The notes under the pieces are model-generated. The model saw nothing but the letters and a program-made list of their open reading frames with translations, had not been told where the DNA came from and did not search any database. The position numbers and the translations under genes are program-made. Below are positions 21,104 to 42,592 of a DNA stretch of 64,000 bases, one piece after another. Positions within the stretch are counted from its first letter, which is position 1, and every line of letters begins with the position of its first letter. This stretch comes from a virus, in the IMG/VR virus record IMGVR_UViG_3300048597_000133, positions 33,523 through 97,522 of that record; one strand, given 5' to 3'.

Positions 21104-22127
21104 CAGTTTAGCATATACTATATTAAGTGTATGGGAGCTTTCTAACAGTTCTAATTATGCTCGAATAATAATGCGGCTCTCCTAAGTGATAAAGACCGAC
21201 TTTAAGCATAACCACATTATTCACGGTACGTCCAATAGTCATAGACACACTACTCCTCACGCTTTGTTTACTGGTCTGGTATTTGGTGAGCAGACAAGCG
21301 CAAAAGTGCTAAGTAGACTTATCTGTGTAACTAACAGACTATGGGTCTTAGTCAGCATATATCTTAAATAATTGTTCTAAATAAGCCAGCCGTATTTTCT
21401 GGTGACCCATAGGAATAAAGTCTACTGGGACGGCAGATAAAGATATGCCAGCGCTGGCGCTAAGGATTACATACGCCCTAAGGAGCTTCTTCTTTTCAGA
21501 GGGCTGACCAGTATGAGTTTTATCTAACATGTCTTCTAATAGAGTGGTGTAGCACTGAGTGATAAGGCGATATGTTGGGGATAGCGCCCCGCTTTACACC
21601 AAGTACGATGTAGAGGTATACGTTAAGGTTATTGATATAGCGCTGCTCTATGACCTTATAGGTGCGGCTTTTAACCACCGCAGTTTTCTTACGGTGTGTA
21701 GTCTTAGTTATCACGGCAATGATAGTGAGTCAACGAAGTTTTTTATCATTCGGGTCATTACCTCCAGGTAGATAGGTGGGTTTTCTACTGCTATCTCGCA
21801 TCGTCCGTTATCGTGGACACGAACTAAGAATCCGCATAACAGGTCTAAGTTTAAATAAGCATCGTACAGAGCATCGTGCCCATTGCGGGTAACGGGCAGG
21901 TGGGTTTTGGTTAGCATGGTTGGGTAACTAATCTAATCCTATAGTCTTATAAAGCCCGCCGATGATAAACCTAAAGCGGGCTGGTGGTCGGATCGACGCA
22001 TAGAACCTAACTTGCTGTTTGTATGGTTGAGTTAAGTATTTAACTGACACGCCTACTTCAGAGATTGCTGTGTCAATATGCTTGAAGACATTATTGCGCC
22101 GAGGTCGGCATTGGCAGTGCTTCTTTG

Positions 22128-22213
22128 TTACCATCTGCTTAAGACCCTATAAGTACTGCCACTAATAGATCTAAAATAAGCGGGCGGTCGTATGCAATGC
22201 TTTTTGTTATCAT
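22128..22213 (-). pseudogene. deleted, frameshifted MLTK-family copy
   Basis: MITK, then in a shifted frame KHCIRPPAYFRSISG; matches both ends of neighbour 21928-22134 (MVTKKHC...IRPPARFRFIIG). Confidence 0.65.
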
Positions 22214-22386
22214 TCCTCTAATATCCTGCGAACTGCCATAGAATTACGTTAATTGAGCGGAATTGATTGGGCGCCTCAATCTGAGGATAGAAATACAGTC
22301 TGTATCCCGTTGGGTGATATAAGTAACCAACCTGCATGCCTATGTCGTATACGGTTTTCGTGACTGTTCTTGCGGCGGGGTTGTCA

Positions 22387-23109
22387 CTATTTCGGCGGTA
22401 CTTCTTTGCTATCATTTGTCTTTTTATCTATATGTGCCCGAAGCTTGAATAAGATGTCATTAATTTTGAAGTAATAATGTAAGCCTCTGCTTCGACCTCT
22501 CTTAGGAATTAAATATGACCAACCTATTTCTACCCAGTTGTCATCTACAACATCTTCCACGTTAAAGTTATGGGCTGGGTGGATGTAGTAGATTTTTCCC
22601 TGTAAGTTCACAGCGACTTTTACGTCTATTAAGTCGCCAAGGTTATTCTTAATGCCTAACAGCATTGACCGATGACGGAAATACTCCCCCAAACTTTTAG
22701 CGGCTGCAAATCTATCTTCTGGCGACTCTAGCTCGACGGCACTTAATGCCTTAAGCATATCTAAGGTGACAGGGAGTAGCCGGTCATAGACTGTGATTAG
22801 CTCCGTAGTTGGTGACTGTAAGTCAAACTTGTACATACTGTGGTTACCTACAGGTTTCTCTGTTGTATAACCAGGGTTTTCTATTAAATCCACTAGATAG
22901 ATACTGAGTCTGGCTTGGTCTTCGGTGGGATTGTATTTAGGTAGTTGTTCGCGTTTGAACTTGTCTACGGCGGCGACTATCTCTTTCTTAGTGCCTCCCT
23001 TAATATAGTCTTCGTATCGTTCTATAGTTGAGTATTTAGCTTCTGAGTCGTCTAGATTGTAGAAGCTTATGGTTATTTTGTAGAGCCGTTTGGTTTTTTG
23101 TTTGGTCAT
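22387..23109 (-). CDS. hypothetical protein embedded in array A
   Basis: 240-aa ORF. Confidence 0.65.
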   Translation of the reverse strand: MTKQKTKRLYKITISFYNLDDSEAKYSTIERYEDYIKGGTKKEIVAAVDKFKREQLPKYNPTEDQARLSIYLVDLIENPGYTTEKPVGNHSMYKFDLQSPTTELITVYDRLLPVTLDMLKALSAVELESPEDRFAAAKSLGEYFRHRSMLLGIKNNLGDLIDVKVAVNLQGKIYYIHPAHNFNVEDVVDDNWVEIGWSYLIPKRGRSRGLHYYFKINDILFKLRAHIDKKTNDSKEVPPK

Positions 23110-24867
23110 TTCTTTAGTTAGCAGATAGTTGAGTTATTAGTAGTCTGCATATATACCGCAAGACGACTAAGCCTACCGTTTGGTTCATACACTCTCTGTA
23201 GTAGGTCACTTTTATAAGTTCACCTTCAATATAGGAGCTCAATCTCTCCACTACGACGTTGCAATAGAAACCCCTTCTAAGATTGTATGTGGGTTTAGGA
23301 ATCATTTCTTTAATGGTCCATAACGCACTATATGAAGTTTAAGCGCCCAACCAGCCGGGCAGATTAGATTGGAGTATGAGCTTAAACCATATTGCCAATA
23401 GAATAGTGGCTGGTCACGTAAAGAGGTATATAGTCTATCTCTAGTGACACCGTAATATACCCATTTAAAGTCGTGAGTGTGCTTAGATACCATGTAAAAC
23501 CCGCCGCCTTACTATAGTGTTTACAGTGTCGTACTTTTTGGTGCCGTCTATAGCTACGAAACTATAATAAGGGTCAGCTCTAAGCGTATAGGGCCCCCTA
23601 AGCGGACAGATTTTATCTGCGAAGACTGCCGGTAATAACAGGACCTTAGTGGTCCGGCGTTTTACACTTGGTGGTTTGGCTATCATATCTTATGCTGTTT
23701 TAACAGGGAAGGTACATATTCGCTAACTACGTCGCTCATAATGCGGAAGTAGCGCGGCGATTTAGCTGATACTGAGACCTCGTACCAAGTCGCTTCACGG
23801 TTTCTAGTTATAGTCTTCACATATCCTGTGTACATAGCCAAGTTCACGAATGTGAGTAGCAGCTCTTTGCGTATTACACGTGCTTGGCGTGGTTTAGCCA
23901 GCATATGTGATGCCCTTAATATAGAGGCAAAGAGGAGTACGGATACTTATGTGAAACCAAGTTAGCCCGGTGTCATAGGTTATTTCTTCAATGAACCCTG
24001 TAGATTTAGATAAGAGTACATAAGCTGAACGGATATCTTTCTGCTTCCTATTGACTTTAGTGTTGTATTTAGTCAGCATAAAACCTCCATCTTAAATACA
24101 TACACTTGTAGGCTGTATCACTCATGACATAAAAGCAGTAAGGTATGATTAATACCAACTGGTGCCATAGCATTTCATCACCATTAACCATTTCTGTCAC
24201 TATATATTTATAGTATTCAGCTAAGACCATAGAAGTCTTACTTAGTTCTTCGGGTTTTATGTTATATCGGCCATGTGATTTTGTTAACATATTCATTTTT
24301 AACAAGTTGGTCTACAATACTTCCTATAACAAAGATATGGGACGGTGTGTTTATAGGAACATCGTCCCAATGTAATCCTTTAGTCACGTACTGTATAAGA
24401 CCACTCCTATTTGCCAGTAACAAATAAGGATTCTTAGGTTTTGCTGATTTACTTAGTCTCATATCTACAAAGGAGGCTTTGGTCAACATGATAGCTTCTC
24501 GATATATCGTTCGAATACACCCCATAAGGCAATGATATAAGAAGGTGTACTTATAGGCACTTGATGCCATATCTCCTGCCTTCTGACATAGCATACACGT
24601 CTGCTAGCTTCTGCCAGTAGTACCCAGGGCTTAGGTCTTTTTCCATACGCCATAGTCATAGGATTAAGACTAGTCTTAGTTAGCATAGGCCGTATTTATA
24701 TAATTCGAATATATCGTCCAAGACAATAATGTGAAGAGGTGTTCTTAAGTTAACCCCTAGCCATTCCTCTTGTTTTCTGACATGGGTTAGAGGACTAGTG
24801 CTTGAGGCTATTAACGTATACACTTTAGACCTTTTATCTAGGTCTGAATCGATAAGGCTAGTTTTAG

Positions 24868-25056
24868 TCAGCATGAGAAACTTCTAGCGTATTGTTCGAA
24901 TGCACTGTCCAACGCAATAATATAAGAGGGCGTATCTATAGTCACCTAGTGCCACCCTTCTTGCTTTCTAACCTGCATTAAACGAGTAGCATTCCGCACT
25001 ATCATAGAAGATTTTTTATGTTGCCGTGTATTTACAAATTTAGTCTTGGTCAATAT
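24868..25056 (-). pseudogene. MLTK-family pseudogene
   Basis: ATA-LTKTK start and internal TAG at 24946-24948; VRKQEGWH*VTIDTPSYIIAL aligns with VRRQEIWHQVPISTPSYIIAL of 24483-24686. Confidence 0.75.
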
Positions 25057-25058
25057 AT

Positions 25059-25469
25059 TTAAACTTGGATATTTAGAACGTCATGCAGAGTTAAAACAAA
25101 CTTAGCCACCGACAATTCTTTTGACATCTGCAGTTGTATTTTCTCTTTGGCAGGTCCCCAATAAGTATAAACTGACTCTTCAGGTATAGTGGCACGCTGA
25201 AGATACTGCTCTGGTAAAAATACCATCACTGACTCGCCAAAGTTCCACCAGCGCTTGCTTTGTTTCGTAATGCGTATATAAACGCCGCGCGTAGGGTGAA
25301 TCATATAGCCTACACTCAAAGTGGCGTCCCACGTAACCGTTAACGGTTCGTTTATATCCTTTATAAGTTTAGAAATAGCTTCTACATGTTGAGAGATAAG
25401 ACCTTTTAATCTTTGTCTTTCTTGATAGTCCTGGTCGTCTATTAACTTTTTGGCGTCGCTGTAATTCAT
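25059..25469 (-). CDS. hypothetical protein
   Basis: 136-aa ORF. Confidence 0.6.
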   Translation of the reverse strand: MNYSDAKKLIDDQDYQERQRLKGLISQHVEAISKLIKDINEPLTVTWDATLSVGYMIHPTRGVYIRITKQSKRWWNFGESVMVFLPEQYLQRATIPEESVYTYWGPAKEKIQLQMSKELSVAKFVLTLHDVLNIQV

Positions 25470-25638
25470 AATTTGTGTGTTGTTGCTTAGTGGACAAGGT
25501 CGTACAAGCTACGACTTGCAACTACTGATTATTAATGTAATCATTGAGGTCATAGAAAACTTCTAGTAAGTAGACTATGTGGTGGAGCGTAGTTCTGACT
25601 GTTGGATGAGAAGCCCAAGCAGAACTAACTGTGTCCTG

Positions 25639-25680
25639 TGATAGACCTCCTTAAATTCACTATTTAAGGGAGGTCTATCA
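25639..25680. terminator. long hairpin downstream of the ligase gene
   Basis: TGATAGACCTCCTTAAAT...ATTTAAGGGAGGTCTATCA. Confidence 0.6.
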
Positions 25681-25708
25681 AAATAGAATAATGTCTGCGG
25701 TGTCTTCC

Positions 25709-26899: not shown

Positions 26900-26903
26900 G
26901 AGA

Positions 26904-27561: not shown

Positions 27562-27599
27562 ATAGTAGACGTCGATTAGGTCGTTGTCGGGGAAGGTTA

Positions 27600-29003
27600 A
27601 GGGGGTTTGAAACTGTTGGCATAAATCTGTAGAAAATAGTAGAATCTAGTAGTAATGGTTGCACAGCGTAATTCCATGAGACAAGTTGAACGAACATACA
27701 TTAAGCTATCGAGTGCCTATTTCTCCACAGTGGATGATTTATCGTGGAGGGCAAAGAATTTATACAACTTAGCCAACTACCACATCAGACAAGAGTTCTT
27801 CAAGTCTGGTGGATATATTGGATTCTTTGACCTTTATCACCTCCTAAAGGGGACAGAGGCATACTTGGACTTGCCTACAAAGGTGTCCAAACAGATAGTT
27901 AAACGTGTTGCTCAGACCTGGAAAGGTTATTTAGCCGCACACAAAGACTGGAAGCGTAATCCACATAAGTACCTAGGAGAGCCAAAGATTCCTGGTTACT
28001 TGGATAAGGAAAAAGGACGTTATTTAATCCCGTATCCTATAGACGCAATCAGTCGTCCTGCGCTTAGAGAAGGATTCATTAAACCGTCCATGACGAAGAT
28101 GCGTATCCCAACTCAAGTCAAAGACGTTAAGGTCTGCGAGGTGCGCTTTGTGCCTAAAACAGATTGCTACGTTATGGAAGTTGTGTACGAGGTAGAAGGC
28201 AAGGAACTTACCGAGGATAATGGTGTAGTTGCTGGATTAGACCTAGGGCTTAACAACCTTTGTACAGTCGCTACCAATCGACTCGATGTTGCCCCTCTTA
28301 TTGTTAACGGAAGGGGACTAAAGTCTATAAACCAGTTCTACAACAAGACTAAAGCTGACATCCAGTCTAAGTTAAGCGGGAAGCGTAAATCCTCTGCAAG
28401 GTTGCGCCTATTAACTCAGAAGCGGAATCAGCGTGTAGATTCTGCTCTGCATCAAGCTAGTAGAAAGGTAATTGACTACTGTGTCGAAAACCTAGTAACG
28501 ACGCTTGTAGTGGGCTACAACAGCTTGTGGAAACAAGAGATTAACATCGGTAAGCGTAACAACCAGCAGTTTACTCAAATCCCCCACCGTAAACTGATAG
28601 ACCAAATCACATATAAGGCGGCGCTTGTAGGTATCAAGGTAATAGAGACAGAGGAAAGCTACACCAGCAAATGCTCTGCTTATGACCTAGAACCTGTCAA
28701 GAAGCATAAGTCCTATGTAGGTCGTAGGGTTAAGCGTGGACTGTTTAAGACTGCCACTGGATTGTTGGTTAATGCCGACGTTAATGGAGCATTAAATTGC
28801 ATCTTAAAAGTATTCAGCAACGAGGTTATCTTCGAGTTGATAGGGGCTCAGCCGTTGCGCCCTAGAGTGGTTAATCCAATCTAAAAACATTACCTCGTAT
28901 TTCTACAGGTTTTGTGAACGGTTAGGGGACATAAGACTAGCTCAGCTAGCTGTTCCTGTTTGAGCCCCGAATCCCATCGGCTTTAGCCGTGGGAGTGGGT
29001 CAA
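27600..29003 (+). mobile_element. TnpB-only IS200/IS605-type element; omega-RNA/right end at ~28850-29003
   Basis: Subterminal hairpin TCCCATCGGCTTTAGCCGTGGGA followed by TCAA at 29000-29003; left end not resolved; no tnpA. Confidence 0.7.
27655..28884 (+). CDS. tnpB: TnpB RNA-guided endonuclease
   Basis: KNLYNLANY, GLDLG (RuvC-I), LHQAS, VVG, EESYTSK, NADVNGA (RuvC-III); start probably MRQVER. Confidence 0.92.
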   Translation: MVAQRNSMRQVERTYIKLSSAYFSTVDDLSWRAKNLYNLANYHIRQEFFKSGGYIGFFDLYHLLKGTEAYLDLPTKVSKQIVKRVAQTWKGYLAAHKDWKRNPHKYLGEPKIPGYLDKEKGRYLIPYPIDAISRPALREGFIKPSMTKMRIPTQVKDVKVCEVRFVPKTDCYVMEVVYEVEGKELTEDNGVVAGLDLGLNNLCTVATNRLDVAPLIVNGRGLKSINQFYNKTKADIQSKLSGKRKSSARLRLLTQKRNQRVDSALHQASRKVIDYCVENLVTTLVVGYNSLWKQEINIGKRNNQQFTQIPHRKLIDQITYKAALVGIKVIETEESYTSKCSAYDLEPVKKHKSYVGRRVKRGLFKTATGLLVNADVNGALNCILKVFSNEVIFELIGAQPLRPRVVNPI

Positions 29004-29040
29004 TCTCCAAGGAATTAGAGTAGGAGTAGTTAGGTGTTGT

Positions 29041-29310
29041 TTAGCTAGCATAATTTTTAAGTGCGGCGCGGGCAACTGTTTCAGCAAAACCTTTAGAGTT
29101 ACCAACATGGCTAGTGTAGAGCCAATAGCCTTTAAGTAAGAGTCCCTCCTCATGTGAAAACTTCTTAACTTCGCTACACATACGCTGAGACAAAGTGTGA
29201 TGCTTATTATCGTTACACCAGTTAGATAGCAGTGAGTAGAATTCCCTCAGCTTTAATTCTTTCAGTTGAGCGCCGGCTAACTTACGGCACTTGGCTTTGT
29301 CAAAAATCAT
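29041..29310 (-). CDS. hypothetical protein
   Basis: 89-aa ORF coupled to the end of array B. Confidence 0.55.
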   Translation of the reverse strand: MIFDKAKCRKLAGAQLKELKLREFYSLLSNWCNDNKHHTLSQRMCSEVKKFSHEEGLLLKGYWLYTSHVGNSKGFAETVARAALKNYAS

Positions 29311-32300
29311 CTTTTGTTTCTAATCCTGTTGGCTACAATATGTACAGCAAAGCAATAGTTAAAGTGCCTTGTGTCCGGGTCATACTTAGGATACACGTCA
29401 TACTCTGACCTAATATCATTGCGTAGTTTAAAAGCCAAGTCGAAGGTAGTCATTCTACTAAAGGGCGACCTTTTCCTGCTGATGGTTTTCTTTTTAGTTA
29501 GCATCGGCCCAGATACTGTATTAAGGTGTAGTGCATCTTATTGAGAGCTGGTAGATTAGACCTATATAGCGACTCTCGGAACACATTACGCCTGGAGATG
29601 TGGGACTTTAAGTTAAACTTCAGACCGGCTGGAGCCAAACCACTATTAGGCTTCTTTAGCATAAACTGTCATATCGTTATGATTTATATAGTTCAGGTAT
29701 TCGCCTACTTCTACGTTTATATAGGTGATGTTAAACCTGCTGTCCCTTTTCATGACAGCAGCAAGTATCACGGTATATAACTCAAGGTGCAGTTTCTGTG
29801 ATACATAGCCGGGTCTACAGAGCTCATCGGATAAATTAAGTTTAGATATCATACGTGTAGTATAAGCAGACCCCGACTCGGGCAACCATCAACGTATAAA
29901 CTGCTCTCATCTTTAATATGTACGGGTCAGGGAGGCATTCTTGTAGGTCTGACAGTGTATTACATACGTCGGAGCAGCAGGTAGTAGCGCCGGCCTTCAC
30001 TGTGTTAGTCTTTATTAACATACTTTGGTAGTGTAAAGCGTTGTAGGTCCACCGCTAGTGATATTCGCCAGTTTACTTTAAATGAGTGCCGATACATAAC
30101 TCTATATTTAAGGGTGTTTAATGTCTGCTCAAGCACACCATAGCTACAAACTGCTCTTTTATCTTTTAGGTGCGCTTTGTTAATCATTAAATCCCCTTAA
30201 ATACTCATGTAATGTAAGACCTAATAATCTATGAGCTACTATTGGAGTTTTAAATAGGAACCTTTCGCACCACAATGGACTAGCTATTCCTTCTAATACT
30301 CGGTGTAGTTTGCCATAACAAAGAAAGTTCTTTTTGCTTCTTGACTGTCTCTTTCCTAGCATACTAATAGGTAGTTACAATGACGCCAGCGCAGGCCCAA
30401 GACAATACTGTCAGCAGAGCAACTTGCAATTTGATAGGTAGACGGTAATGATTGACCCAGTATAAGGCAATAACGCCGCCGGCTAGGTAGATACTTAAGA
30501 CGATAGTGGTTTGCATGATGGTAATAATGTCAAATGAATAGAAAAGCCCCATCAGTGTTACCTGATGGAGCCGCAGCTAGAGTAGGAGAACTTGGTTCAG
30601 TTAGTTATCTTTTTGCTTAGCGGGCATTTGTGGTAACACCTTGGCTATATCCTTGCCTACAGCTTCCCAATCTTTAGCTAAAGCACGCCGGTCAAATTCC
30701 CAAGCTTCCTTGTTGGTCATTGGGCGGCGCCATCGTCCACTACCCCTAATATCTAAAACCCTACCCATACCATATAAAAAAGACTTAAGATTGTTCTTCA
30801 TACTTACTACCTAGAGTTTCATGGTGTTTCACTATGAGAGCAATGACCGCTAATGGCTTTTTCATTTCAAGGTCTAGAGCATAGTCTATCTTACTGAGGT
30901 TAGCGCTAATAACGTTTAATACAAGGTTCGTCATTCCTTTCACTGAAATGCTGTCTCTTTGGTCGCACTCAAATTCAGGCATGAGTATCTCGCAAACTTG
31001 TTTATTAATCATAACCAATTTAATGCAATTTTCTGTCCCATGACTTGTTTATAGACCAACCTATAAAAATAAGACAGGCAGCATAACGGTAAGTATTTGG
31101 TAGACCTTGCTTAGACAAACACTTCAATAGTGAGTCCTTAACTTTTACCATTGCTGCCTGCTCATAGACCATAAACTCACGAGATAAGACTCTTACAATT
31201 CTCGTCTTACAACTTTGTTTAGTTATCATAACTACATTCTCCATTTTGTAAGACCCCAAGATTTGTCTAGCATTAAACCCATAGAAACAAAACAAAAATC
31301 ATGACCGAGTTCTGGTAGTCCAACGGTGTATGAATCAAGTATGCTCCAGACTTTTAACTCGACCCAACGATTAGACTGTACAGTGTGCGCCTTTTTCAGA
31401 TGTACACTATATAAATCGGGCTTTAGCGTCTTTTTAGTTAGCATAATGTCTTGGATATACCAGTAGCTATAGCATCAAATATGTGCCCACTATCTAAGAC
31501 GTATAGGTCTATATACAGGCTCCTTAACGCATGAAAAATCTTAACATCGTCTGTGACGGCCAGCCACTCTCCCCTCGATCTGGGTAAGGGCTCAAGGTTA
31601 TATTTACTTAACATAATCTCCGCTATCTAAATGAAGTACCACTGACAGCCAAGCTACGTAACTATTAGAGCTTCTTTGATATCTTACAGCGGGCTTGTCT
31701 GTATTCTTACGCGAATGGGTTTTGGAAAGCATACGCTGAAAGACATGAGATTAATATCACGTGCCAAGTTTAAGCATGAAAAAGATTTAATAAGCACTAT
31801 ATTACAATACTGCTTAGTCAGCATATGCTCTAATGAAGTGCCTATACGGCGTGGTTTACGTTTTTTATTCAGCATACCTATGTAGTCTAGGAACAGTAAC
31901 AATGCTTACATCAAACATTGGTAGACTGGGTACCTTTTTGTACATATACCACTTATCTATATAAAGTCTTATTCTTATGCAAACTCTATACAGGCTGTAT
32001 TTCCGTGCGTATACTCTGACCTTTGATTTATTTAACATTCTGATTTAGCCCATAGTAATGAAGAAAGAGGAGTAACTATTTCAACAATCCCATATAATTC
32101 AGGGTTAATGCGATAAGTGCTCCGTAGATATGCACGGTCTATTTTTGACCTGGCCCTATGATAGGCGACCAAGCGCGCGTGTACCTTGGCTTTTGATTTA
32201 TTCAACACTAATATCGTGCCCCTATTACTTTATATATGTTATCTACATACCCTAGGAACAGAATGCCATTCTCGAAGTAGAGGTGGTCAAACATCCAGTC

Positions 32301-33064
32301 TCTCATCATACCTATTGGCCTACCTGCGTCATACATGGATAGGTAATGAGTGTCAGAAAATCTGTGGGTGTTTCTTTTGGTTAGCATCAATTTTGCTCTG
32401 ATATAGTCCTGCACATTTTTCTGATTTTAAAATACTCTCTTTGTACAGCACGATTTTTTACCTGTAAACGACGGGACAGATAACTAAGCACTTCTTGTCT
32501 TATTATTTCTAGTAGTGGTCGTTGTTTACGATTAATATATGTTAGGAAATTAGCGCCCGCAAACCGACACGTATTTCTTTTATTTAACATAAGGGCGCAA
32601 TGACTTATAACGTTCCTTAATGATGTATCTAGTAAGCATCAAAGGTCTGTCTGGCATAATAATCTCATATAAAATCATGGTTATATGATGGCTCGTGAAA
32701 GTATATTCTCTGCGCCGCGTTTTAGTATTTCGTTTAGTCAGCATAATAACTAATATTTTTATAGCGATTTCTGATAAACCATTTAGCGGTCATTAAAGGT
32801 TGTCCTTTTGTATTAAAGCTATCTATTGTCCAGCTGACACTATAGTGTGCAGCGTTATAATACCGACGATATACTTTAGTATTTCGTTTAGTCAACATGA
32901 GCTTAAAGTACTACTGATTTGTGCATTAACATAATATCTACTCTGGTAGGTAGTATTTTGGGTGATATTAAAGACCTTGACTTTTTACAGCAAGTATTTA
33001 TTACCTGGTGAATAGGACCTACGCAAACTTTGCGCTGCACTTTAATGTTATGTTTGGCAAGCAT
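29307..33064 (-). other. MLTK microprotein array B (about 19 units, interrupted by 30364-30801)
   Basis: Starts at 33064, 32898, 32744, 32590, 32387, 32208 (GTG), 32038, 31875, 31824, 31614, 31444, 31229, 31012, 30362, 30187, 30021, 29852, 29662 and 29504; several are <60 aa, absent from the ORF track and verified open by hand. Confidence 0.8.
30364..30801 (-). CDS. two small non-family ORFs inside array B (membrane peptide 30364-30552; 30601-30801)
   Basis: Hydrophobic two-TM peptide; 66-aa ORF SFLYGMG...D..AL..DWEAVG.D. Confidence 0.55.
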
Positions 33065-33098
33065 AATAGAAAAGCGCCTCCACAAAGTGAAGACGCTG
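33065..33098 (-). terminator. hairpin plus U-tract abutting the first ATG of array B
   Basis: AGCGTCTTCAC-TTT-GTGGAGGCGCT-TTTCTATT-ATG on the minus strand. Confidence 0.65.
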
Positions 33099-33500: not shown

Positions 33501-34870
33501 TGAACTACCCCACCCTGCTATGTGAGGATGGGGTTTCTGAAGTCCCATCAGCAGAGGTGTGTTGCTTACGCTTCCTCGAACCAAGTTGCCGCATCGATCC
33601 ACAGTAAGTGGCAGATAGGGTAGAGCTTAATTCTCCACGTTTAACGATGCTCGTTCCAAACACCGCAGAACCATAAAGAACCCAATTGAGCATAACTTGA
33701 GCAGCAGAAACATCCCTGTCAGCAGAGTATCCACATTGTTGGCAATGGTGGGAACGCTCACCGAGTTCTTTTTTCTTTTGATGGCCGCAATGAGGGCAAG
33801 TTTGAGAGGGTTTTACTTTTTGGGTGGGAATCTCAATATATTGACCACCAGCCTCACCGACCTTGTATTTAATGAAGTCCTTGAGCTTGCCGATACCAAC
33901 ATCAAGAAGGGAGCGATTAAGCCCAGTCTTTTGACGTTTTCTCTTACTGCCTTTTTTAGGTTTGCGGGTCATCCCTTTGATATTTAGCTTTTCAGTGCAA
34001 ACTAGGCTATTACCGCTAACTATATTTGCGCTGATTTTGTGGGCCCAATCATCCCTTTTTCTGCCCACCTTGCGAGTGAGTTGGGATACTTGACGTTGTG
34101 CCCGACGGTATCGCCCAGAAGCCTTAACTTTCTTTTTGCGATTAGGGGCACGTTTTCTCCGTTTAGCTTTATTGGCTAGGCGGATTTTTTGTGCTGATTG
34201 AGCCAAGAACTGGGGAGCATCAACGATAGTCCCATCGCTCATAGCTATTGCATGGTAAACCCCAAAATCAAGCCCAATAAAACCATCATCAGTGTCCCGC
34301 ACCACTTCACAATTGACAGTAATGGAGGCATACCAATTCCCATGCCGATGGACAATGGTGCAAGTGGTAGGAGTTCCCCACCACCTTGCCTGTCCCCTCA
34401 TTTGGATTTTACCCAAATTGGAAATAGACAAGTAGCCATTTTTGCCATCAGTTAAAGCTTTCCATCCTGCTTTGTCTGGGTATGTCCACCCAGAATAATG
34501 CCGAATTGACTTAAACCTGGGGTATCCACCCTTGCCAGCAAAAAACCTTTGATAGGCAAAATCCACCCTTTTTAAGGTAGCTTGTAGGGCATGGGAACCG
34601 AGGGGTTTAAATTCTGGCCAAACTTGCTTAAAAGCTGGAAGACAATTTTGTTGGGCGAAATAATCTACCGAGCGACCTTCCTGCTGATATGAATCCCTAC
34701 GGTCTGCCAATGCAGAATTGTAGACATAACAGTGCAACCTGCGCCACTCATAGAGTTGCTTTTCCTGGGCGGCGGAAGGATATAAGCGGAAGGTGACTCG
34801 ACGGGTTAACATGGGGTAATCTTAACATAATGTTTGTGACCAAGTATCGCAAAAAAGTGATAAAGTAGTC
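33501..34870 (-). mobile_element. TnpB-only IS200/IS605-type element
   Basis: Right-end hairpin ACCCCATCC...GGGTGGGGT then TTCA at 33504-33501; left end approximate; no tnpA. Confidence 0.7.
33505..34812 (-). CDS. tnpB: TnpB RNA-guided endonuclease (IS605 OrfB type)
   Basis: FRLYP HTH, GYPRFK, GLDFG, TEKLNIKGM, SQTCPHCG...CQQCG, DRDVSAA. Confidence 0.95.
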   Translation of the reverse strand: MLTRRVTFRLYPSAAQEKQLYEWRRLHCYVYNSALADRRDSYQQEGRSVDYFAQQNCLPAFKQVWPEFKPLGSHALQATLKRVDFAYQRFFAGKGGYPRFKSIRHYSGWTYPDKAGWKALTDGKNGYLSISNLGKIQMRGQARWWGTPTTCTIVHRHGNWYASITVNCEVVRDTDDGFIGLDFGVYHAIAMSDGTIVDAPQFLAQSAQKIRLANKAKRRKRAPNRKKKVKASGRYRRAQRQVSQLTRKVGRKRDDWAHKISANIVSGNSLVCTEKLNIKGMTRKPKKGSKRKRQKTGLNRSLLDVGIGKLKDFIKYKVGEAGGQYIEIPTQKVKPSQTCPHCGHQKKKELGERSHHCQQCGYSADRDVSAAQVMLNWVLYGSAVFGTSIVKRGELSSTLSATYCGSMRQLGSRKRKQHTSADGTSETPSSHSRVG

Positions 34871-34877
34871 AGGAATT

Positions 34878-36027
34878 TTATAGACATGTGCGGGCAATGA
34901 TTATGTAAGGTGTATGATACTGTCTTAAGTGGTCATATAAACTGTCAGGTCTATATTTTCTACTAAAGTCAAAACTAGCATCGTGTAAACTATTGACCAG
35001 TCTAGAGCTTACAAAGTAAGATTCGTACTCAGATAGAGAATTTTTGCTTAACACCACAATTAACTAAGTCAAAATAACGTCTAATTGAGAATATACTGAT
35101 ATGCGTACAGTAAACTTCATAATGACTCCTACTACTAAGCACGTCTTTAAAGAGTTGCTTAGTTTTAGGATACGGTATATAAAGCATTTGTTGTTCACGT
35201 GTTAATACTGAAGCGGTTTTAACGTCAACTCTGAAACTGGCACTAGTATTGACTTTACCTAGCATAGTGCTCTACTGAAATAAGGCGGTGATTAATGTGA
35301 ATTTCTAACATGCGATATATTGCTTAGAAATATGGCTCGGTACTTGAGGTTTATACGGCTGCTGACTTTGTCGTTATCAGATATCTCATACACAAGGTAC
35401 AGCAAATCCCTAATGATGCAGCTTAAGAACACGTTGGATAGCCCGTGGATGTTATCAGGCTTAAACTTATATTTGGTAACCATACTGCTTAAGGACTACG
35501 TTGAGAGCGGTAAAGACAATATTAGAATATATAGGATGAGAGTATAGCCTCAAATGATATAGGTTATTGTCACAAGCGTCCAAACATATTGTAAGACGTG
35601 AAGATCTACCATATAACACTACTTGCTGAAACGTGAGCCTGGCGTTTTGTTTAGTGACCATTGTTAAGGTATCCCCTCCATATCCACATATGCTATCCAC
35701 ATGTGCATAGCAGGAGATTGTCGTAGATCAGATTTGTACTTTTCATGTAGATGGTAACCTAAGTACTCTGCCATATAATCTTTCAGGTTTATAGAAGGTG
35801 AGTTTATCCGCCTAGCAAACCGCTCTTTATTGCTATGTAGCCGGGCATTTTGTTTAGTCAACATAAAGAGCGTCAGACAATGCGTAGATGATATCCAAGT
35901 ATATGCGGTGTAAAGTCGTCAGGTGGGCACCTTTATAATATGCTGCCACAAGTTCTTTAATCGTAGCTGAGATAGGGAGAATACTGTATATACGTGCATG
36001 TACCCGGGCGTTTAGTTTGGTCAACAT
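34878..36027 (-). other. MLTK microprotein array C (6 units)
   Basis: Starts at 36027 (MLTKLNAR), 35864 (MLTKQNAR), 35661 (MVTKQNAR), 35483 (MVTK), 35265 (MLGK), 35054 (GTG-LSK). Confidence 0.8.
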
Positions 36028-36063
36028 AGAAAATATAAAGCCCAGAGAATAATCTCAGGGCTA
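36028..36063 (-). terminator. hairpin plus U-tract abutting the first ATG of array C
   Basis: AGCCCTGAGA-TTAT-TCTCTGGGCT-TTATATTTTCT-ATG on the minus strand. Confidence 0.65.
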
Positions 36064-36079
36064 AAATCGCTATCGGGTT

Positions 36080-37150
36080 TTAAGTGCGGAGCACGGGGTA
36101 AATCGAAGAAGGTCGGAAAGAGCATCCTTCTAACGCCTCGCCCGGGCTAGCCAAATACTCCTGCGCTTCTTCACAAGTATTACACCGAGGGTCAACCTCT
36201 AAAGCATAAGGACGACCAGTGCTGGGGTCATAAGTGAACAACACTTTCATATTCTCTAAGCCCATCAGAGACTCCATCCACATGGAATTGGTATTAGGAA
36301 GTTGAACAGTCTTAACATCCAAGACTGTGGCGTTCATCTCTTGACAATACTTATCCCAACCATAGCCAGTAATCCGCAGCCGTTTGACCTCTTGGTCTTC
36401 TTCGCTGTTGATTTGCTCTAATGTCTGAGTCTCAGGACGCATGACGATTTGCTCATCGACAATAACACCACCAATAGCCCAAACAGAAAAGTCGTCTTTA
36501 TAACGAATAGCAGGACCTTTAGGGTTATTCAAGCATTCATTCTCTGCGTCCCAATGTACTTCAACAGGGTTCTCAGAGACAATAGCCACGCCGTCATAGA
36601 CGATGGCACAGCTAATCATTTGCCCGAAGTCCCGCAGCAATTCTACAGACTCCATGTCTACGTCGATGTCATGAGCGATGCAGGCCTCGGCGTATGCTAA
36701 AGAACCTTGTAGCCAGTAGGAGTAGAGAAAATCAGAGCTGAGATAGTAGCGGAGATTATCAATCTCGGATTTATATTCGACTAACAAAGCCTCTACTAAG
36801 ATGTCTACTTGAGCTAAGTCGCCGTCTAAGGGGGCTTCACCGGTTACTTTGTAATGGACGTATTCATCGGTGCGTTGACTAGATACCCCGGCTTTCTTTT
36901 CAATGTCTTGCCATTGCTCTGGGGTGATGAAACCCAAAGAGTTCAGAGTAAGGGCTTTACTTGTCATGTCGGCAGGGCTATCAGCGAATACTACTTCAGG
37001 CGCTTCTAGGTTAGCCATGGAGTAGATTTTTGTGAGAGCCTTTGCAAAACGGGGGCGGTCAATGGGGCCTTTAAGGATTGTAGCGTTGGCCCGCATGTGA
37101 GCTTCGAGTTTCTTAAGGGTAGCGTCGTCTAATTGAGAGGGGTTAGCCAT
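36080..37150 (-). CDS. conserved hypothetical phage protein (DUF6745-like)
   Basis: GPIDR...IY..A.L..P....DSP; P.E.HWD...GPAIRY.D...WA..GV; DPSTGR.Y.L.V.P...T.EEA. Confidence 0.65.
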   Translation of the reverse strand: MANPSQLDDATLKKLEAHMRANATILKGPIDRPRFAKALTKIYSMANLEAPEVVFADSPADMTSKALTLNSLGFITPEQWQDIEKKAGVSSQRTDEYVHYKVTGEAPLDGDLAQVDILVEALLVEYKSEIDNLRYYLSSDFLYSYWLQGSLAYAEACIAHDIDVDMESVELLRDFGQMISCAIVYDGVAIVSENPVEVHWDAENECLNNPKGPAIRYKDDFSVWAIGGVIVDEQIVMRPETQTLEQINSEEDQEVKRLRITGYGWDKYCQEMNATVLDVKTVQLPNTNSMWMESLMGLENMKVLFTYDPSTGRPYALEVDPRCNTCEEAQEYLASPGEALEGCSFRPSSIYPVLRT

Positions 37151-37396
37151 AGATAATTGAAAATTAGGTTAAAGTTTTGGTTGAATTGTTTTGTTCGCCG
37201 TTGGTCTACTTTTTACTTGGCGGGCGCATATCTTATTTTCATAGTTCATCTTCCGCGTAGTCTAATAGTAATTTAATCAGAGAGTCTAACGGTTCGCGGC
37301 TGCCCAACGGAATTTCTACCCGAGCTTCAGACTCTCCTTCTAGAAAGGCTTCTAGACAGTTGGTGTCTTCATTGACTTCTAAGCGGTTGAATTGAA

Positions 37397-39608
37397 TCAT
37401 CCGAAAGTTACCCACCATTTCTTTTCAACTAGCCCAGATTCTAACGCCTTAGCGCCGGCTAAGGTAGGACTAACTACACCGGCTGCAAAGTAATAAATTC
37501 CATCTACCTCGTCGTATGTATCGCCATCAGAATAGTCATGATAGCCAACGTTAAGTTCAAGCCCAGTCGCTTCTTTAAACTCTTCTTGTACAGGCTTCCA
37601 TAGGTCGTCTAGTTCTTTATAAGTTACGTGACCATGAACCCAGTCGTAAGAGTCAAGCTCTTGGAGCTCACCGTCCGTTACTTTTTGCAGTAATTCCTGA
37701 AATTGTTCGAAGCTTGGTAAGTTAAGTTCCTTAAGTTTGTCTTCGTCAATGACGTAAGCACTGTTGGCTTTAAATCCTACACCCATAATATCTTATCCAA
37801 TAGTTATAGCAGTGGTTAGAACAAATCTCGCTTGGCCTTAACGTGGTTAATCGCATCGCTAAGGACTTGATCAAAGGTGCCGTCGTTAATGAAGTAAGCT
37901 TGGAGCCGCGCCCTTACCTCCTCGATCTCCAATGGAGTAGGGTAGGCACAGCCCCGCTCTTCAAAGTCCTTTTTCTCTAAGAACAGAACAGGCAGTGGCT
38001 GACTAAGGTTAGGCTGCACAGATTGATTTGGATGGTGTTTAGACTTCACTAAAGGATTCCTCTAAAAACTTCTGCCATTGTTCAGCTTCTTCGTAGAAAC
38101 CATTAGGTCGCCACGGTCTGGCATCGCGCCCACCGTTCTTCTTAGTATTAGGCGCGCTCCTACTAAGACTAAGCATGGTCATATAAAAGTCTCTAGTGGT
38201 CTTATCGTCTGCTTCCCGAACTGTTTCATCCCAGTCTTTGTGGTGAGTTAAACCTAACTTCTCTTCTAGCTCAGCCACGTACAAATACAGCACATGGATA
38301 GCTTTGCTATATTCGTGGACGTAACTTACCAGTCGTTTGATAGCCTCACCGCAGACTTTATTGTCTGGTGGTAGAACTTGGTCTGGTGGTAATTCTATGG
38401 GTTGTTTAGCTAAGGCGGAAGAGCGCTTTTTTGTGCGCCGCTTAATTGGTGGAGAGGGCATAAGTTAATGGTAATCAGGTAAGAAAGCAACGTCGAAGGG
38501 TCCTTTACTTATAGCTTCCCATTGTCTGGTAATCTCTCCATTGGGCTCACAATAGGTGAACCGTTGGAATTTAATGGGTTGTTTAGTTTGAGGACCAAAG
38601 TCTACTGTGATTATGGATGAGCCCGGGCCATGGGGTCCTTCAATAATGTGACCATGAACAGTACGCTCTTCAACTACGTCTTCTAGTCCATCATACGTTT
38701 CTACGCAGTCCATAGTTACAAAAACAGCTTTAACCCTGGAGCCTTTCAAGAACCCGAGGTTAGCTGGGGCGGTGATAGTGTTTGGTTTATTCATCTGTTG
38801 GTATCCTTTTTATCTGGCGGTCACTCTTTATCGCCTAGAACTTCATCTGCTAACTTATTTAGTCCTCCTGTCACTAAAGCTATTAAACGTAACGTAGCTG
38901 CGCGGTTTCCATCCCTGATCTCCTTCATATATTTGTCTACGTCTATTGAGGAGTCTTCGTGGAGTACTAAATGCTTAACGTTTTGATTAGCTGTAATGTT
39001 AGTTGGGTCATTGGCGGCGGCATAAACAACTAAACATGATGCTGTGTGCAGATCAATGACTTCTTCGTTAGTTCCGTCTGGTAATTCTATGACCTGTCCA
39101 TCGGGATTTATTAGATTAGTGGCGAATTGAGCCGGGTTTAAATTTAGAGTCATATTCTAAACCATTGGTATTTTCTGAATTAATCCGCTAAGAAAGGACG
39201 AGTATTTGTCGTAGTTCGGGTCATGCTTTATGCGGTAACCAGTGGACATCGATAATGGGTAGAGCACTTTATGTACATCAAACTCTACTGACTTGTGCTT
39301 AGTGTATTTTGTTATAGGCATTTTAGTGGTCTATATGTAAAAACCCCTTGTCCTGGACAAGAGGTCGAATAAAGTACACCTCAGTGACCCATATTTTAGC
39401 TTGGCTTACCACCGGCCTCCACAACAAATCCTTTATCACCATATACCGTTGCTATACCATGTCCATCTATGTGGTAACGACCATCTTCCAGTTGGGTAAT
39501 TTCTGGGCATGTGTCATTAGCGTGTCCTGGTTTGATTAGAAATCGATATTCGCCGGTCTCCTTGTCAATCCACATCTTCATTTCTGCGGGCTCAGTTAGT
39601 TTAGTCAT
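37397..39608 (-). CDS. cluster of hypothetical proteins (37397, 37816, 38039, 38465, 38821, 39157-39321, 39396)
   Basis: Co-oriented ORFs; 39157-39321 (MPITKYTK, 54 aa) may be an MLTK-family outlier. Confidence 0.6.
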
Positions 39609-39648
39609 AATAGTCGCTAGTTGAGTGTGCGGTCATATTTCTAACTTA

Positions 39649-40938
39649 CTATCTCCAAAGAAAATCTCTAATCCATTGCAGACGTTGCTGTTCTGTTAAT
39701 CCGGTGAAGTATTTAATATCAGCCCGCACGGCATCAATAAGAGGGTAATACTCCTCATCCACAGTTTGCTTAAAACCATCTGTAGCAATCTTAGAGGTAT
39801 CTGGATTCCGGGCGAGCCATTTACTGACCAAGTAATAAGGACTTTTCAACTTAGAACTAATCCCGTCATCGGTGTAAAACACAAACCCTTCGTGTTTTAC
39901 CGACCTGACCTTCTTTAACAACTCGCCCACTGTAGTCCTGTGGTGTTCAACTGGACTAATGCCGAGCATCTGGCTAAGCTTATCTAATTGTTTAGGTTTA
40001 GCCTTTGGTTTAGAGTTCCAGTCCTTTGTCCTAACTGCTAGTAAATAAAGCCCGGGCTCTTCTGGAACAATGTGCGGATCTTCAGGGCTAACACACTCGA
40101 AGATAAAACTCTTGTTATGGTAAGAGTGACATAACTCTGTTAGAGCCTGGCGAATACCTTGTACATCTATAACATCTTGGGCATACTTAACAAAATCAGA
40201 AGTCAATGACCCGGTAGTAGAGACCAGCACCTCATCTTTATGCCAAGTAACGCAAACCATAAACCCATTTACCTTTCTAAAGGCAGTGACTTCAGTGTTT
40301 GGGTCTAAGACCGGCGCTTCTTTCTCTATACCATAGTTATAGATTTTGATTAATGGTAATGAGATTGGATTATAGTCTTTGTCTACAACACTGCCGCGAC
40401 ATGCCTCTAAATAAGGATTCCATAGCCCGTTATAGAAGACCTTCTTGGTATATTTTAGGACGTAAAGCCCGTTGCCTTGGTCTCTACACTTAACTAAGCT
40501 CGGATTATTTTCTACGTACTGTTTTAATCCCTGTTGGTCAAAAGGAATGTCATCGGCAATGTCATGTTCAAAGCGCGCCCGCATGTTCTTGATTGTGCTG
40601 GCTGGCACGTTATGTACACTGCCATAGTTATTTTGACATTCGATTACCTGTGGCGTGATATTTAACTCGATGGCTAAGTCAAAGTAAGGGCGTAGCTCCC
40701 ACTTAGTAGTAAAGGTATTGGAAACAATAGCGTCATTGCCAGCTTCTAGCCACGCTCTGGTGCGTGCTAAACAGTCGGCGTGGGCTTCTTTTAGTTTATC
40801 TCGGTCGAACTTATAACCATCTTCGGTGTTAAAGTATTGGTCTGCTTCAAACACCTGACACTCTGGGTTAGTTGCTAAAGTATGGGCCAGGGTGGATTTA
40901 CCTGACCCTGGTAGCCCTCGGATGATAGTTAGTTTCAT
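39649..40938 (-). CDS. P-loop polynucleotide kinase fused to Rnl1-type RNA ligase
   Basis: RGLPGSGKST, EADQYF, VSNTF, HNVP; then LKY, CRG, KVNG (motif I), FIFE, EGFV, KLKS. Confidence 0.85.
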   Translation of the reverse strand: MKLTIIRGLPGSGKSTLAHTLATNPECQVFEADQYFNTEDGYKFDRDKLKEAHADCLARTRAWLEAGNDAIVSNTFTTKWELRPYFDLAIELNITPQVIECQNNYGSVHNVPASTIKNMRARFEHDIADDIPFDQQGLKQYVENNPSLVKCRDQGNGLYVLKYTKKVFYNGLWNPYLEACRGSVVDKDYNPISLPLIKIYNYGIEKEAPVLDPNTEVTAFRKVNGFMVCVTWHKDEVLVSTTGSLTSDFVKYAQDVIDVQGIRQALTELCHSYHNKSFIFECVSPEDPHIVPEEPGLYLLAVRTKDWNSKPKAKPKQLDKLSQMLGISPVEHHRTTVGELLKKVRSVKHEGFVFYTDDGISSKLKSPYYLVSKWLARNPDTSKIATDGFKQTVDEEYYPLIDAVRADIKYFTGLTEQQRLQWIRDFLWR

Positions 40939-41144
40939 TATTTAGTCTCGTGTTGTTCTCGTCGTACCCAGTCTTTAATGTAAAGCTCAGTTAAGTCTTC
41001 TACTTCCTTTTCTGTGAAGAGGTTTGTTGTCTCGTAGTAGGCTTTGACGACCTCGTACATAGAAGGCTCAAATTGTAGGTCATTCTCTGGGTCAAAGTCT
41101 GCCTTAAGAATAAAAGGCCGAATATCTGTAAATCTTTTATCCAT
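40938..41144 (-). CDS. hypothetical protein
   Basis: 68-aa acidic ORF between the phosphoesterase and ligase genes. Confidence 0.6.
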   Translation of the reverse strand: MDKRFTDIRPFILKADFDPENDLQFEPSMYEVVKAYYETTNLFTEKEVEDLTELYIKDWVRREQHETK

Positions 41145-41150
41145 GATGGT

Positions 41151-41699
41151 TTAATAGTTGCGTTTAAGAACAGGACGTTGTTTAAGTTCTTCGACTAGAG
41201 CGTAGTAGTCGCTTAATAGCTTGCCAGTAGCATCGTAACCTACATCCATAGAGCGGTACTCCTCTAGCCCAGACTGACCCCCGTGAAGGTGGCCATGGAA
41301 GCCAATAGAGCCATGATGGCATTCATTCCAATAACTAATAGGGTAATGAAACATAGTCACTAACACCCTATGGCTCCTTTCATAAACTTCTAAATAGTCC
41401 TGCACACTCTGGAAGCAGTTAAGGAACTCTGGACACTTACAGTTCTTGTAGTCGTGGTTGCCTTTGACCAGAACCTTCTGACCTCTTAAAGACTTAACAA
41501 TCTCTACTGAGTAGTTGGGCTTCCTAAAGGACACATCTCCAAGAATGTAAATTAAGTCGTCGTCGGCAACAGTGTCGTTCCATTGCTCGATCATCTGTCT
41601 GTCCATGTCGTCTACATCGGTGTAGTGACCTCGAACTTCAGGGGAGAATTTAAGGATGTTTTTGTGACCGAAGTGTAGGTCAGAGGTAATCCATTTCAT
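41151..41699 (-). CDS. calcineurin-like metallophosphoesterase
   Basis: SDLHFGH, LGD, GNHD, HYP, HGHLH. Confidence 0.92.
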   Translation of the reverse strand: MKWITSDLHFGHKNILKFSPEVRGHYTDVDDMDRQMIEQWNDTVADDDLIYILGDVSFRKPNYSVEIVKSLRGQKVLVKGNHDYKNCKCPEFLNCFQSVQDYLEVYERSHRVLVTMFHYPISYWNECHHGSIGFHGHLHGGQSGLEEYRSMDVGYDATGKLLSDYYALVEELKQRPVLKRNY

Positions 41700-42592
41700 G
41701 ACTTGGTATGATTTTGTTTATATTTACACATAAGACAAAAGGCACTGGGCATACTGCTATAGACCAATAACCAATTGGCTTTGTATATGGGTGTTTCGCT
41801 AGGAAGTAAACGATTCTCGTAAGTTTACAGGCGGCTATAGGTATTGGAGCACAATCCTGTGGGTCGTTGTAAAGTCTCTTAGTCAACATATTACCTACTC
41901 CGTATTGCTAATCCAGTGAGAGAGTCAGCTACGGCGGTGTTATGGTTGCTGTCTATGTATGCTGGTAGTTGATTATCAAGGCGTATCTGGTACACAACCA
42001 TATTGAGCTTTAGTTTGACCCGTTGCACACTTATGTGTTTTCTGAGCATCATTGTAAGTGAAACATGGTATGTATAAAACTTCTTAGTGCTTTTTGTATT
42101 GTAAAAGCCCATACAGTTACCGGATGCGCCACGGTTGGACTATTATGTGGTAGATTATGTAGTGTACAACGTCCCAAACATAATACTTTGTTCTTTTTAA
42201 GCATTTAATAGTCAGTTCCTTTAATAAAGCTAATACTATAGTTATTTTGTATACTCGGTAATTATAGGTCGCCGTCTCGGCTTAATCTCTTTAACTCTTG
42301 ACCAAGTGAAACAAAATATGAGTCTCTGGGGATTGTGCGTATATAATTTGATATGTAACCAAAACTAGTGCTACAACATACACTGAATAAAAGGTCGTCC
42401 AGTTTGGACATGACGTAGTTAATAGTCGTGCTTTTAGTGATCATATTTTGTCTACTCTCCTTACATGGTCACCAATTGTCATGAGACATAGAGTAACAGG
42501 TAAACCTCTTTGTTTGATGATTTGTTTGTAGGTATTTTACTCGACGTATTGGATATAAAACTGTCATATGGCTTGAAGTATTTACTGACCAT
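41680..42592 (-). other. MLTK microprotein array D (about 5 units)
   Basis: Starts at 42592 (MVSK), 42444 (MITK), 42204 (MLKK), 42049 (MLRK), 41889 (MLTK). Confidence 0.65.

Follow-up and report, generated by a model that had tools for sequence, protein, structure and literature searches.

Arrays of divergent microproteins with a common N-terminal M-[LIV]-x-K tag in a putative cyanophage genome

Introduction

Why would a virus keep dozens of very small genes whose products have little in common beyond their first few residues? The question is posed by a 64,000-nucleotide stretch of viral DNA (the window), bases 33523-97522 of the 97.5-kb IMG/VR record IMGVR_UViG_3300048597_000133 (G000). A first-pass annotation, read from the letters of this stretch, had noted about 48 minus-strand open reading frames (ORFs) starting M-[LIV]-x-K, for example MLTK, in four arrays with outliers at 17923, 19416 and 19616. 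We refer to the products as the MLTK family, to the constant start as the tag and to the remainder of each protein as its body. Our tentative answer, given a probability of about 0.45, is that one shared partner recognises every member by the tag, its N-terminal handle, and that the bodies are variable payloads; the single partner and the roles of the payloads we infer.

IMG/VR holds a single related genome, IMGVR_UViG_3300048597_000634 (G001; 205.5 kb, 91% complete), in which the core genes keep the order that they have in the window and are 66-79% identical to them in nucleotides.

Results

The tagged ORFs are maintained protein-coding genes

The tagged ORFs are real genes that have been maintained for their protein products. 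When the whole 97.5-kb record was scanned on both strands for ATG-initiated ORFs of at least 35 residues starting M-[LIV]-x-K, 49 were found on the minus strand and none on the plus strand, against a mean of 2.2 and a maximum of 5 in 50 shuffles, in agreement with the first-pass count. The curated window set comprises 47-48 members of 37-78 residues, while G001 adds about 68, all on the corresponding strand and between 138 and 194 kb; the two genomes together contain at least 116 tagged genes with a median length of 65 residues. The window members are arranged as follows, in window coordinates, with each gene written from start to end:

21348-24874, minus strand: array 1, 14 tagged genes, interrupted by an untagged 240-residue ORF (22387-23109).
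Array 1 members, minus strand, first part: 24874-24680, 24686-24483, 24489-24262, 24290-24069, 24079-23894, 23904-23683, 23686-23483.
Array 1 members, minus strand, second part: 23493-23302, 23305-23114, 22415-22218, 22134-21928, 21917-21711, 21714-21520 (GTG start), 21530-21348.
24875-25056, minus strand: probable decayed copy at the head of array 1; the DNA immediately ahead of the 24874 start is similar to the C-terminal coding sequence that precedes 24686 and 24489.
29307-33064, minus strand: array 2, 19 tagged genes; two small ORFs among them lack the tag, 30601-30801 and 30364-30552, the latter apparently hydrophobic and of membrane type.
Array 2 members, minus strand, first part: 33064-32903, 32898-32734, 32744-32580, 32590-32387, 32387-32208, 32208-32032 (GTG start), 32038-31865.
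Array 2 members, minus strand, second part: 31875-31684, 31732-31604, 31614-31438, 31444-31232, 31229-31020, 31012-30785.
Array 2 members, minus strand, third part: 30362-30180, 30187-30005, 30021-29842, 29852-29646, 29662-29498, 29504-29307.
34878-36027, minus strand: array 3, six tagged genes directly downstream of the gene for a DUF6745 protein; 98% covered by tagged ORFs.
Array 3 members, minus strand: 36027-35854, 35864-35664, 35661-35467, 35483-35292, 35265-35029, 35054-34878 (GTG start).
41680-42592, minus strand: array 4, five tagged genes adjoining a metallophosphoesterase gene.
Array 4 members, minus strand: 42592-42479 (37 residues), 42444-42262, 42204-42049, 42049-41891, 41889-41680.
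17729-17923, minus strand: isolated tagged gene starting MLSK, directly behind a terminator-like hairpin.
19222-19616, minus strand: pair of tagged paralogues, 19616-19419 (starting MVIK) and 19416-19222 (starting MILK).

Array 1 had earlier been taken to begin at 21123, a boundary that has to be moved, the 45-residue GTG-initiated ORF at 21123-21260 carrying no tag.

Of the 46 tag sites in the arrays, 42 are followed by 35 or more open codons (chance 0.124 each; binomial p = 9e-34), and tagged ORFs cover 78-98% of the array stretches. Neighbouring members are full-length paralogues with 30-44% identity. The rates of nonsynonymous (pN) and synonymous (pS) change, a comparison between neighbours that the first pass had proposed, show pN below pS in all 17 detectable paralogue pairs, with ratios of 0.47-0.83; for the pair at 19616 and 19416 (36% identity over 50 residues, E = 8e-8) pN/pS is 0.52. 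Synonymous sites are saturated, indicating that even the closest copies are old. Scans for Rfam elements, tRNAs and tandem repeats were empty in the arrays, and their interpretation as an RNA element or a repeat array was rejected on that ground.

The tag is selected as a peptide

The tag consensus M-[LIV]-[TSN]-K-x-[NTS]-[LTAV]-[KR] leads into a basic stretch from which acidic residues are almost absent up to about residue 14 (Asp/Glu 0-10% at positions 5-14, with no conserved Glu). The net charge of +1.7 over residues 5-20 and the median pI of 9.8 fit the basic stretch described in the first pass. Likeness between unrelated members ends soon after the core, residues 5-8 showing an identity of 0.10 in unrelated pairs vs 0.063 for random and residues from 9 on being random. 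Among long ORFs (at least 100 residues, G000 and G001) the tag starts 1 of 258, which disposes of the earlier reservation that it might be no commoner here than among other genes.

Selection at the level of the peptide, proposed earlier from the synonymous codon variation that is indeed seen within the tag, is borne out by the statistics of both codons and residues. At residue 2 the choice among Leu codons matches genome-wide usage (p = 0.24). Among ATG ORFs of 35-95 residues on the array strand that have Lys4, residue 2 is Leu in 76, Ile in 24, Val in 9 and Thr in 6, and neither Phe nor Met occurs there, despite codons that likewise carry T as the second base. The choice at residue 4 behind M[LIV][TSN] is just as narrow (Lys 85, Arg 1, Asn 0), and Lys4 is retained in 54 members that have no overlapping TAA inside the tag. 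Since a stop-codon or RNA-motif origin predicts Asn as often as Lys and Phe alongside Leu, neither of which is seen, it is rules of residue choice that hold the tag together, and its origin as a purely nucleotide-level stop/start module or RNA-binding site is ruled out. No conserved DNA was found in the 18 nucleotides upstream of the starts.

The consensus x-x-T-K-Q-[NT]-[LTA]-[KR]-[KR] (residues 1-9) lies in register with the eukaryotic histone H3 tail A-R-T-K-Q-T-A-R-K, which, with a cyanobacterial host, is most likely a coincidence. The untagged minus-strand ORF of 240 residues inside array 1 (22387-23109) starts M-T-K-Q-K-T-K-R, a tag-like string minus the aliphatic residue; neither Pfam nor PHROGs gave a match for this ORF, and G001 lacks a DNA counterpart of it.

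The bodies appear to lack common homology

By sequence comparison the bodies appear to be variable payloads without detectable common homology, as the first pass had supposed. Its statement that members share only the tag was nearly right, about eight residues being common and the bodies falling in part into at least 11 small subfamilies; the Tyr/Ile/Leu/Arg-rich composition that it gave for the bodies stands, as part of a broader L/R/I/S/V/K/Y-rich one. With the first four residues removed, BLAST joins the bodies into no more than 11 clusters, each of 2-3 members, while 91 of the 116 stay single (32 matches in the real set vs 1 in the shuffled set). Iteration of hidden Markov models halts at subfamilies of 2-6 members and recruits no decoys, and profile-profile comparison (hhalign) of 12 subfamilies without the first 13 residues reaches a best probability of 11.7%.

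Three subfamilies deserve mention. Subfamily A has six members, from 24874 to 23683. Subfamily B, consisting of 22415, 22134 and three G001 genes, has seven invariant body positions (G, V, Y, L, P, F, I), and subfamily C unites 29662-29498 with two G001 relatives; both B and C are conserved between the genomes with saturated synonymous sites. Low-confidence AlphaFold (AF2) models of A and B both predict a helix, a beta-hairpin and a second helix, with an unstructured N-terminal tag (predicted local distance difference test, pLDDT, below 50 over residues 1-9 in subfamily B).

The MLTK family also appears to have no known relatives, in line with the first pass, which recognised no family. Ten members scanned against Pfam and PHROGs gave no significant match, and a sequence search of the PDB returned nothing better than E = 0.15. 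A profile search of 1.84 billion representatives gave 0 matches, a word-seeded search of 5.8 billion proteins found only the window's own proteins, and the ESM Atlas yielded no usable match. Foldseek with a low-confidence model gave E values of 2 or worse and VIA-align a best Z of 3.3, a missing fold match being no proof of a new fold.

Tagged genes are gained and lost as whole units

Gain or loss by slot distinguishes the two genomes. Tagged genes occupy at least nine gaps between the collinear core genes of G000 and G001, and the number of members per slot (G000 vs G001) is, for example, 17 vs 1, 19 vs 28, 6 vs 1, 0 vs 9 and 5 vs 16, the slot of array 4 holding 16 tagged genes in G001. Outside subfamilies B and C no cross-genome similarity of members is detectable. 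The pattern of the arrays is one of birth, death and drift of whole units. Hypermutation of the bodies by a diversity-generating retroelement was rejected, since no reverse transcriptase (PF00078) was found in G000 or G001, where controls were positive.

A search of IMG/VR, metagenomes and 185,579 genomes with a double-tag DNA pattern returned G001 only, plus chance matches and simple repeats, and an anchor-protein search in metagenomes and genomes gave no further carrier. The Microcystis phage Ma-LMM01 has no arrays, and a literature search brought up nothing relevant on such arrays in cyanophages. One sequence, L046 (FQKF010101333.1, G+C content 30%), has five consecutive overlapping minus-strand ORFs of 60-76 residues at 1241-2236, which start with, or hold near the start, MLTK, MLTK, MLTP, MLTP and MLSK. 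Their products are acidic and two are clear paralogues; they may be an unrelated family, found only through the search pattern.

A possible handle for exchangeable payloads

A strictly kept flexible peptide, on proteins that have nothing else in common and in a proteome otherwise without it, points to a short linear motif recognised by one partner. In the mechanism we propose, a lineage-specific set of basic proteins of 35-90 residues would be made from long minus-strand operons with translational coupling, which occupy the spaces between conserved early genes and genes of DNA/RNA repair. The motif, carried on a flexible, acid-poor basic arm, would be the handle by which one partner binds, loads or chemically uses each member, and Lys4, which is not replaceable by Arg, may be the site of chemistry or of very specific recognition. 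The bodies would then be exchangeable payloads with fast turnover, at least two subfamilies having a predicted helix-hairpin-helix topology, and would probably serve host takeover or counter-defence. Concrete candidates for the partner would be the adjacent repeat-less DUF6745 protein or the prohead core, the latter in the style of T4 capsid targeting.

Several observations weigh against a shared handle. The AF2 models of subfamilies A and B have low confidence (pLDDT 68 and 64). The composition of the bodies correlates at r = 0.90 with random-sequence expectation vs 0.74 with long phage genes, suggesting that many members may be weakly constrained. Selection on the peptide is accompanied by a nucleotide layer, ACT/ACC and AAA being enriched in the tag and upstream stops falling inside it. 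The family is seen in two genomes only, so that conservation of the tag could partly reflect shared ancestry. As regards the first of the candidate partners, phages of the Ma-LMM01 type carry DUF6745 without arrays, and because arrays fill at least nine slots, the adjacency of DUF6745 to one of them is not statistically telling.

DUF6745 as a candidate partner

The gene next to array 3 is the following:

36080-37150, minus strand: repeat-less DUF6745 protein, 356 residues (Pfam PF20530, E = 2e-17).

Array 3 begins 53 nucleotides downstream of this gene, which is present in one copy each in G000, G001 and Ma-LMM01 and is conserved, with 87% identity to its G001 orthologue. In G001 tagged genes flank it on both sides, with one member in one slot and nine in the other. 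DUF6745 homologues have a common C-terminal domain and come in two forms, with a long hypervariable tetrapeptide tract or, as in the window, with none. In P0148, P0142, P0205 and P0153 the tract runs to 30-50 tetrapeptides in tandem and separates the N-terminal part from the conserved C-terminal domain; each tetrad combines two constant with two variable positions (x-x-Q-L, S-S-L-x, N-V-x-x or N-L-x-x). The tract is absent from P0132, P0133 and the window's protein, whose best period-4 score is 0.17 vs 0.7-0.9 in tract-bearing homologues.

The existence of the two forms allows the idea, which we consider unlikely, that the tagged proteins are exchangeable partners of a repeat-less DUF6745 protein, the variable part being supplied in trans while the MLTK arm docks. 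Fourteen IMG/VR DUF6745 loci could be scored, six intermediate or unscorable ones being excluded. Arrays of small paralogous ORFs on the same strand as DUF6745 accompany 3 of the 8 repeat-less genes and none of the 6 that have a tract, a difference in the direction expected from docking that is not significant. L118 (IMGVR_UViG_3300049846_001015) offers a clean second case, an array of about 12 paralogous genes of 51-68 residues (11067-13474) lying directly downstream of a repeat-less DUF6745 gene. The encoded proteins begin M-[LIVK]-[LI]-x, have the internal motif F-A-G-[YF]-x-x-[FC]-D-x-[VI]-[IL] in common and are unrelated to the MLTK family.

The internal structure of the tagged proteins speaks both for and against docking. 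Only residues 1-8 are in tetrad register (T/A-type residues at 3 and 7, K/R at 4 and 8), so that the first two tetrads of the tag would fit, yet the bodies are no tetrad repeat. Their lag-4 class signal (z = 4.5) lacks a lag-12 partner and is strongest from residue 45 to the end, where it is joined by lags 7 and 8, a C-terminal pattern that indicates an amphipathic helix; a tetrad-repeat origin of the bodies was rejected by this lag analysis. Docking is further disfavoured by the arrayless Ma-LMM01-like phages, whose DUF6745 is likewise repeat-less, and by Tweety gp54, the only functionally studied tetrapeptide-repeat protein, which gave no DUF6745 match in the tests made here and is not confirmed as a member of that family.

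A broader formulation, about which we remain doubtful, is that a previously unknown code of 4-8 N-terminal residues (Met-aliphatic-Thr-Lys, with a chemically essential Lys4) delivers over 50 unrelated micro-payloads in each genome to a single receptor, possibly DUF6745. These would be its interchangeable surfaces in host takeover or counter-defence, a trans-encoded equivalent of the tracts. As a candidate partner DUF6745 is at least as good as the prohead.

Possible capsid targeting

The prohead comes into consideration through the analogy drawn in the first pass, between the tag and the capsid-targeting sequence on the internal proteins of T4, which are diverse defence inhibitors having only that sequence in common (PMC3012670). 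By this precedent the MLTK members would be basic proteins packed with the DNA and injected as anti-defence effectors. They are indeed small and basic, as expected of DNA-associated internal proteins, and their copy number and content differ strongly between relatives, as under an arms race.

The analogy is not supported in its specifics. The T4 sequence, M-K-T-Y-Q-E-F-I-A-E, has about ten residues and is removed by the prohead protease after Glu, whereas the tag has no sequence likeness to it and residues 5-14 are poor in the Glu needed for T4-type cleavage (at aliphatic-x-Glu sites). No match to the S77 or S78 prohead protease was found in G000 or G001, which is weak evidence, as the S77 control was positive nowhere and G000 is an estimated 56% complete. 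The tagged genes stand in operons with early and nucleic-acid-metabolism genes, and 50-70 cargo species would be unprecedented. We judge capsid targeting improbable; packaging, injection and anti-defence roles of the members are conjecture.

A nucleotide layer at the gene junctions

The tag could instead be an expression signal whose first codons or nascent peptide secure re-initiation and early elongation, and which at the same time houses the upstream stop. Inside the arrays, stop/start overlap links members into chains: about 70% of the ORFs upstream of a tag have their stop within it, the overlap being 4, 7 or 11 nucleotides and the stop lying at set tag positions (2-4, 5-7 or 9-11), which leads to the recurrent C-termini Y-A-D, Y-V-D and Y-A-G. 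AAA encodes Lys4 in 80% vs 59% for start-proximal Lys in other genes. These junctions, the AAA and ACT/ACC enrichment, the few Shine-Dalgarno sites and the want of a conserved upstream element all suit an expression signal. Stop placement or RNA sequence cannot explain, however, why Leu codons are free while Phe and Met are barred at residue 2 and Asn and Arg at residue 4. Other phage genes are equally poor in Shine-Dalgarno-like sites (22% of long phage genes vs 28% of tagged genes) and yet, with the single exception noted above, carry no tag; any special use of Shine-Dalgarno sites by the tagged genes was rejected for the same lack of excess. An expression signal in place of an address has poor prospects.

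Three leading genes are preceded by hairpins:

36039-36062, minus strand: hairpin and U-tract, 11 nucleotides ahead of the ATG that opens array 3 (-15.9 kcal/mol, z = -3.3; none of 200 shuffles did as well).
33073-33097, minus strand: terminator-like hairpin and U-tract, 8 nucleotides before the first ATG of array 2 (11-bp stem in the terminator scan, -16.0 kcal/mol, z = -3.9).
17931-17954, minus strand: hairpin with U-tract directly ahead of the isolated gene at 17923 (z = -3.3).

A strong hairpin with a U-tract thus lies 8-11 nucleotides before the starts at 36027, 33064 and 17923 (z = -3.3 to -3.9), and no such hairpin precedes the array leaders 24874 and 29504. The leader hairpins may reflect terminator read-through, or may be processing sites that double as standby sites where a Shine-Dalgarno sequence is lacking.

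Passengers and degrons as less likely readings

That most members are near-neutral passengers, old tandem duplicates or proto-genes with drifting bodies, whose frame is open only since translation through the operon, begun at a functional tag, matters, we judge very unlikely. The random-like composition of the bodies, their weak codon-position bias, the 91 of 116 that are BLAST singletons and the lack of homologues among 1.8-5.8 billion proteins are what passengers would show. They would not be expected to keep pN below pS in 17 of 17 pairs or frames of 55-75 codons open at 42 of 46 tag sites, nor to include subfamilies that are conserved at saturated synonymous divergence (B and C) or two subfamilies with the same predicted topology.

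Leu or Ile at residue 2 leaves the initiator Met in place, by the specificity of methionine aminopeptidase. The least probable explanation is that the tag, with its retained Met and its position on a disordered tail, is an N-terminal degron or timer for an AAA+ protease such as ClpXP, by which early proteins would be short-lived or would swamp the protease: the ClpX N-motif-1 tags of E. coli (AtpD, Dps, GapA, lambda O, sigma S), which are short N-terminal T-x-K-aliphatic strings (PMC9775585), have the same residue types, but their order differs (aliphatic-T-K here), making this a resemblance only, and phage-encoded ClpP, ClpS or peptide deformylase was rejected as the partner, such genes not being found in the phage.

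The source genome and the genes around the arrays

Apart from the tagged genes the window encodes rIIA, PhoH, a RecA/UvsX-like recombinase, a DNA polymerase/exonuclease, an ATP-dependent DNA ligase-like ORF, a polynucleotide kinase-RNA ligase fusion and a metallophosphoesterase. The nearest isolates by polymerase are Ma-LMM01 and its kin, at only about 25% identity, and the two TnpB genes of G000 have their best relatives in cyanobacteria (65-77% identity), for which reasons G000 is treated as a large cyanophage. Its source may be a cyanophage of about 200 kb, distantly related to Ma-LMM01; IMG/VR classes G001 as a provirus, and the lineage may thus be temperate.

The polynucleotide kinase-RNA ligase fusion adjoins the metallophosphoesterase between the arrays (39649-41699, minus strand) and has the domains of T4-type RNA repair. 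Repair of this type counters anticodon nucleases, and a counter-defence neighbourhood would fit. The TnpB genes, of IS200/IS605 type, also lie between arrays, at 27655-28884 (plus strand) and 33505-34812 (minus strand). The first, which has its best protein relatives in cyanobacteria, shares 92-95% DNA identity with a G001 copy at a non-syntenic place (190-192 kb), well above the 66-79% of the core genes, suggesting recent mobility. Rfam gives a group I intron match at 8420-8672 on the minus strand (59 bits, E = 1.5e-12).

Discussion

About 9 kb of the window, or roughly one-tenth of the 97.5-kb record, consists of genes that standard annotation would mostly miss and that databases do not recognise. 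Should the tag prove to be a genuine address or docking peptide, a simple and testable rule would emerge for the way in which a phage manages many tiny proteins whose repertoire changes fast. Cargo could then be brought to a phage component by this portable tag, and an approach would open to the role of DUF6745, which is widespread in large phages and unstudied.

T4-type hyperplastic regions with their PeSL cassettes are comparable in that small accessory genes between core genes are gained and lost as units. As described by Arbiol et al. in 2010, these cassettes reportedly have promoter and stem-loop DNA motifs at their borders, and the proteins encoded in them are unrelated and have no peptide in common. 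The MLTK arrays have no conserved flanking DNA motif, their shared element being in the protein.

The tract-bearing DUF6745 proteins (PF20530) join a constant scaffold to a hypervariable part, as tag and body do, but the window's DUF6745 protein has no tract and the microprotein bodies are not tetrad repeats. The theme of hypervariable modules is met again, by analogy, in Tweety gp54, which with Che8 gp57 and PMC gp51 is a hypervariable tetrapeptide-repeat protein whose variation tunes counter-defence against a prophage system (PMC2884959, PMC9262239). Like the bodies, gp54 is a hypervariable accessory protein, and it has constant ends; it differs in being a single protein of 374 residues with A-A-x-x repeats (phrog_3416) and has no similarity to MLTK proteins.

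For a constant short address on variable small phage proteins the precedent, again one of analogy, is found in the T-even internal proteins (IPI, IPII, IPIII and the variable IP locus), which are likewise small, basic and diverse, carry one short constant N-terminal peptide (PMC3012670) and vary in gene content between related phages as the MLTK arrays do. Set beside them, the MLTK family has a tag that is much shorter than and unlike that of T4, with a core of four residues (eight loosely), no Glu after it and no protease found, and it comprises 50-70 genes per genome in early-type operons in place of a handful.

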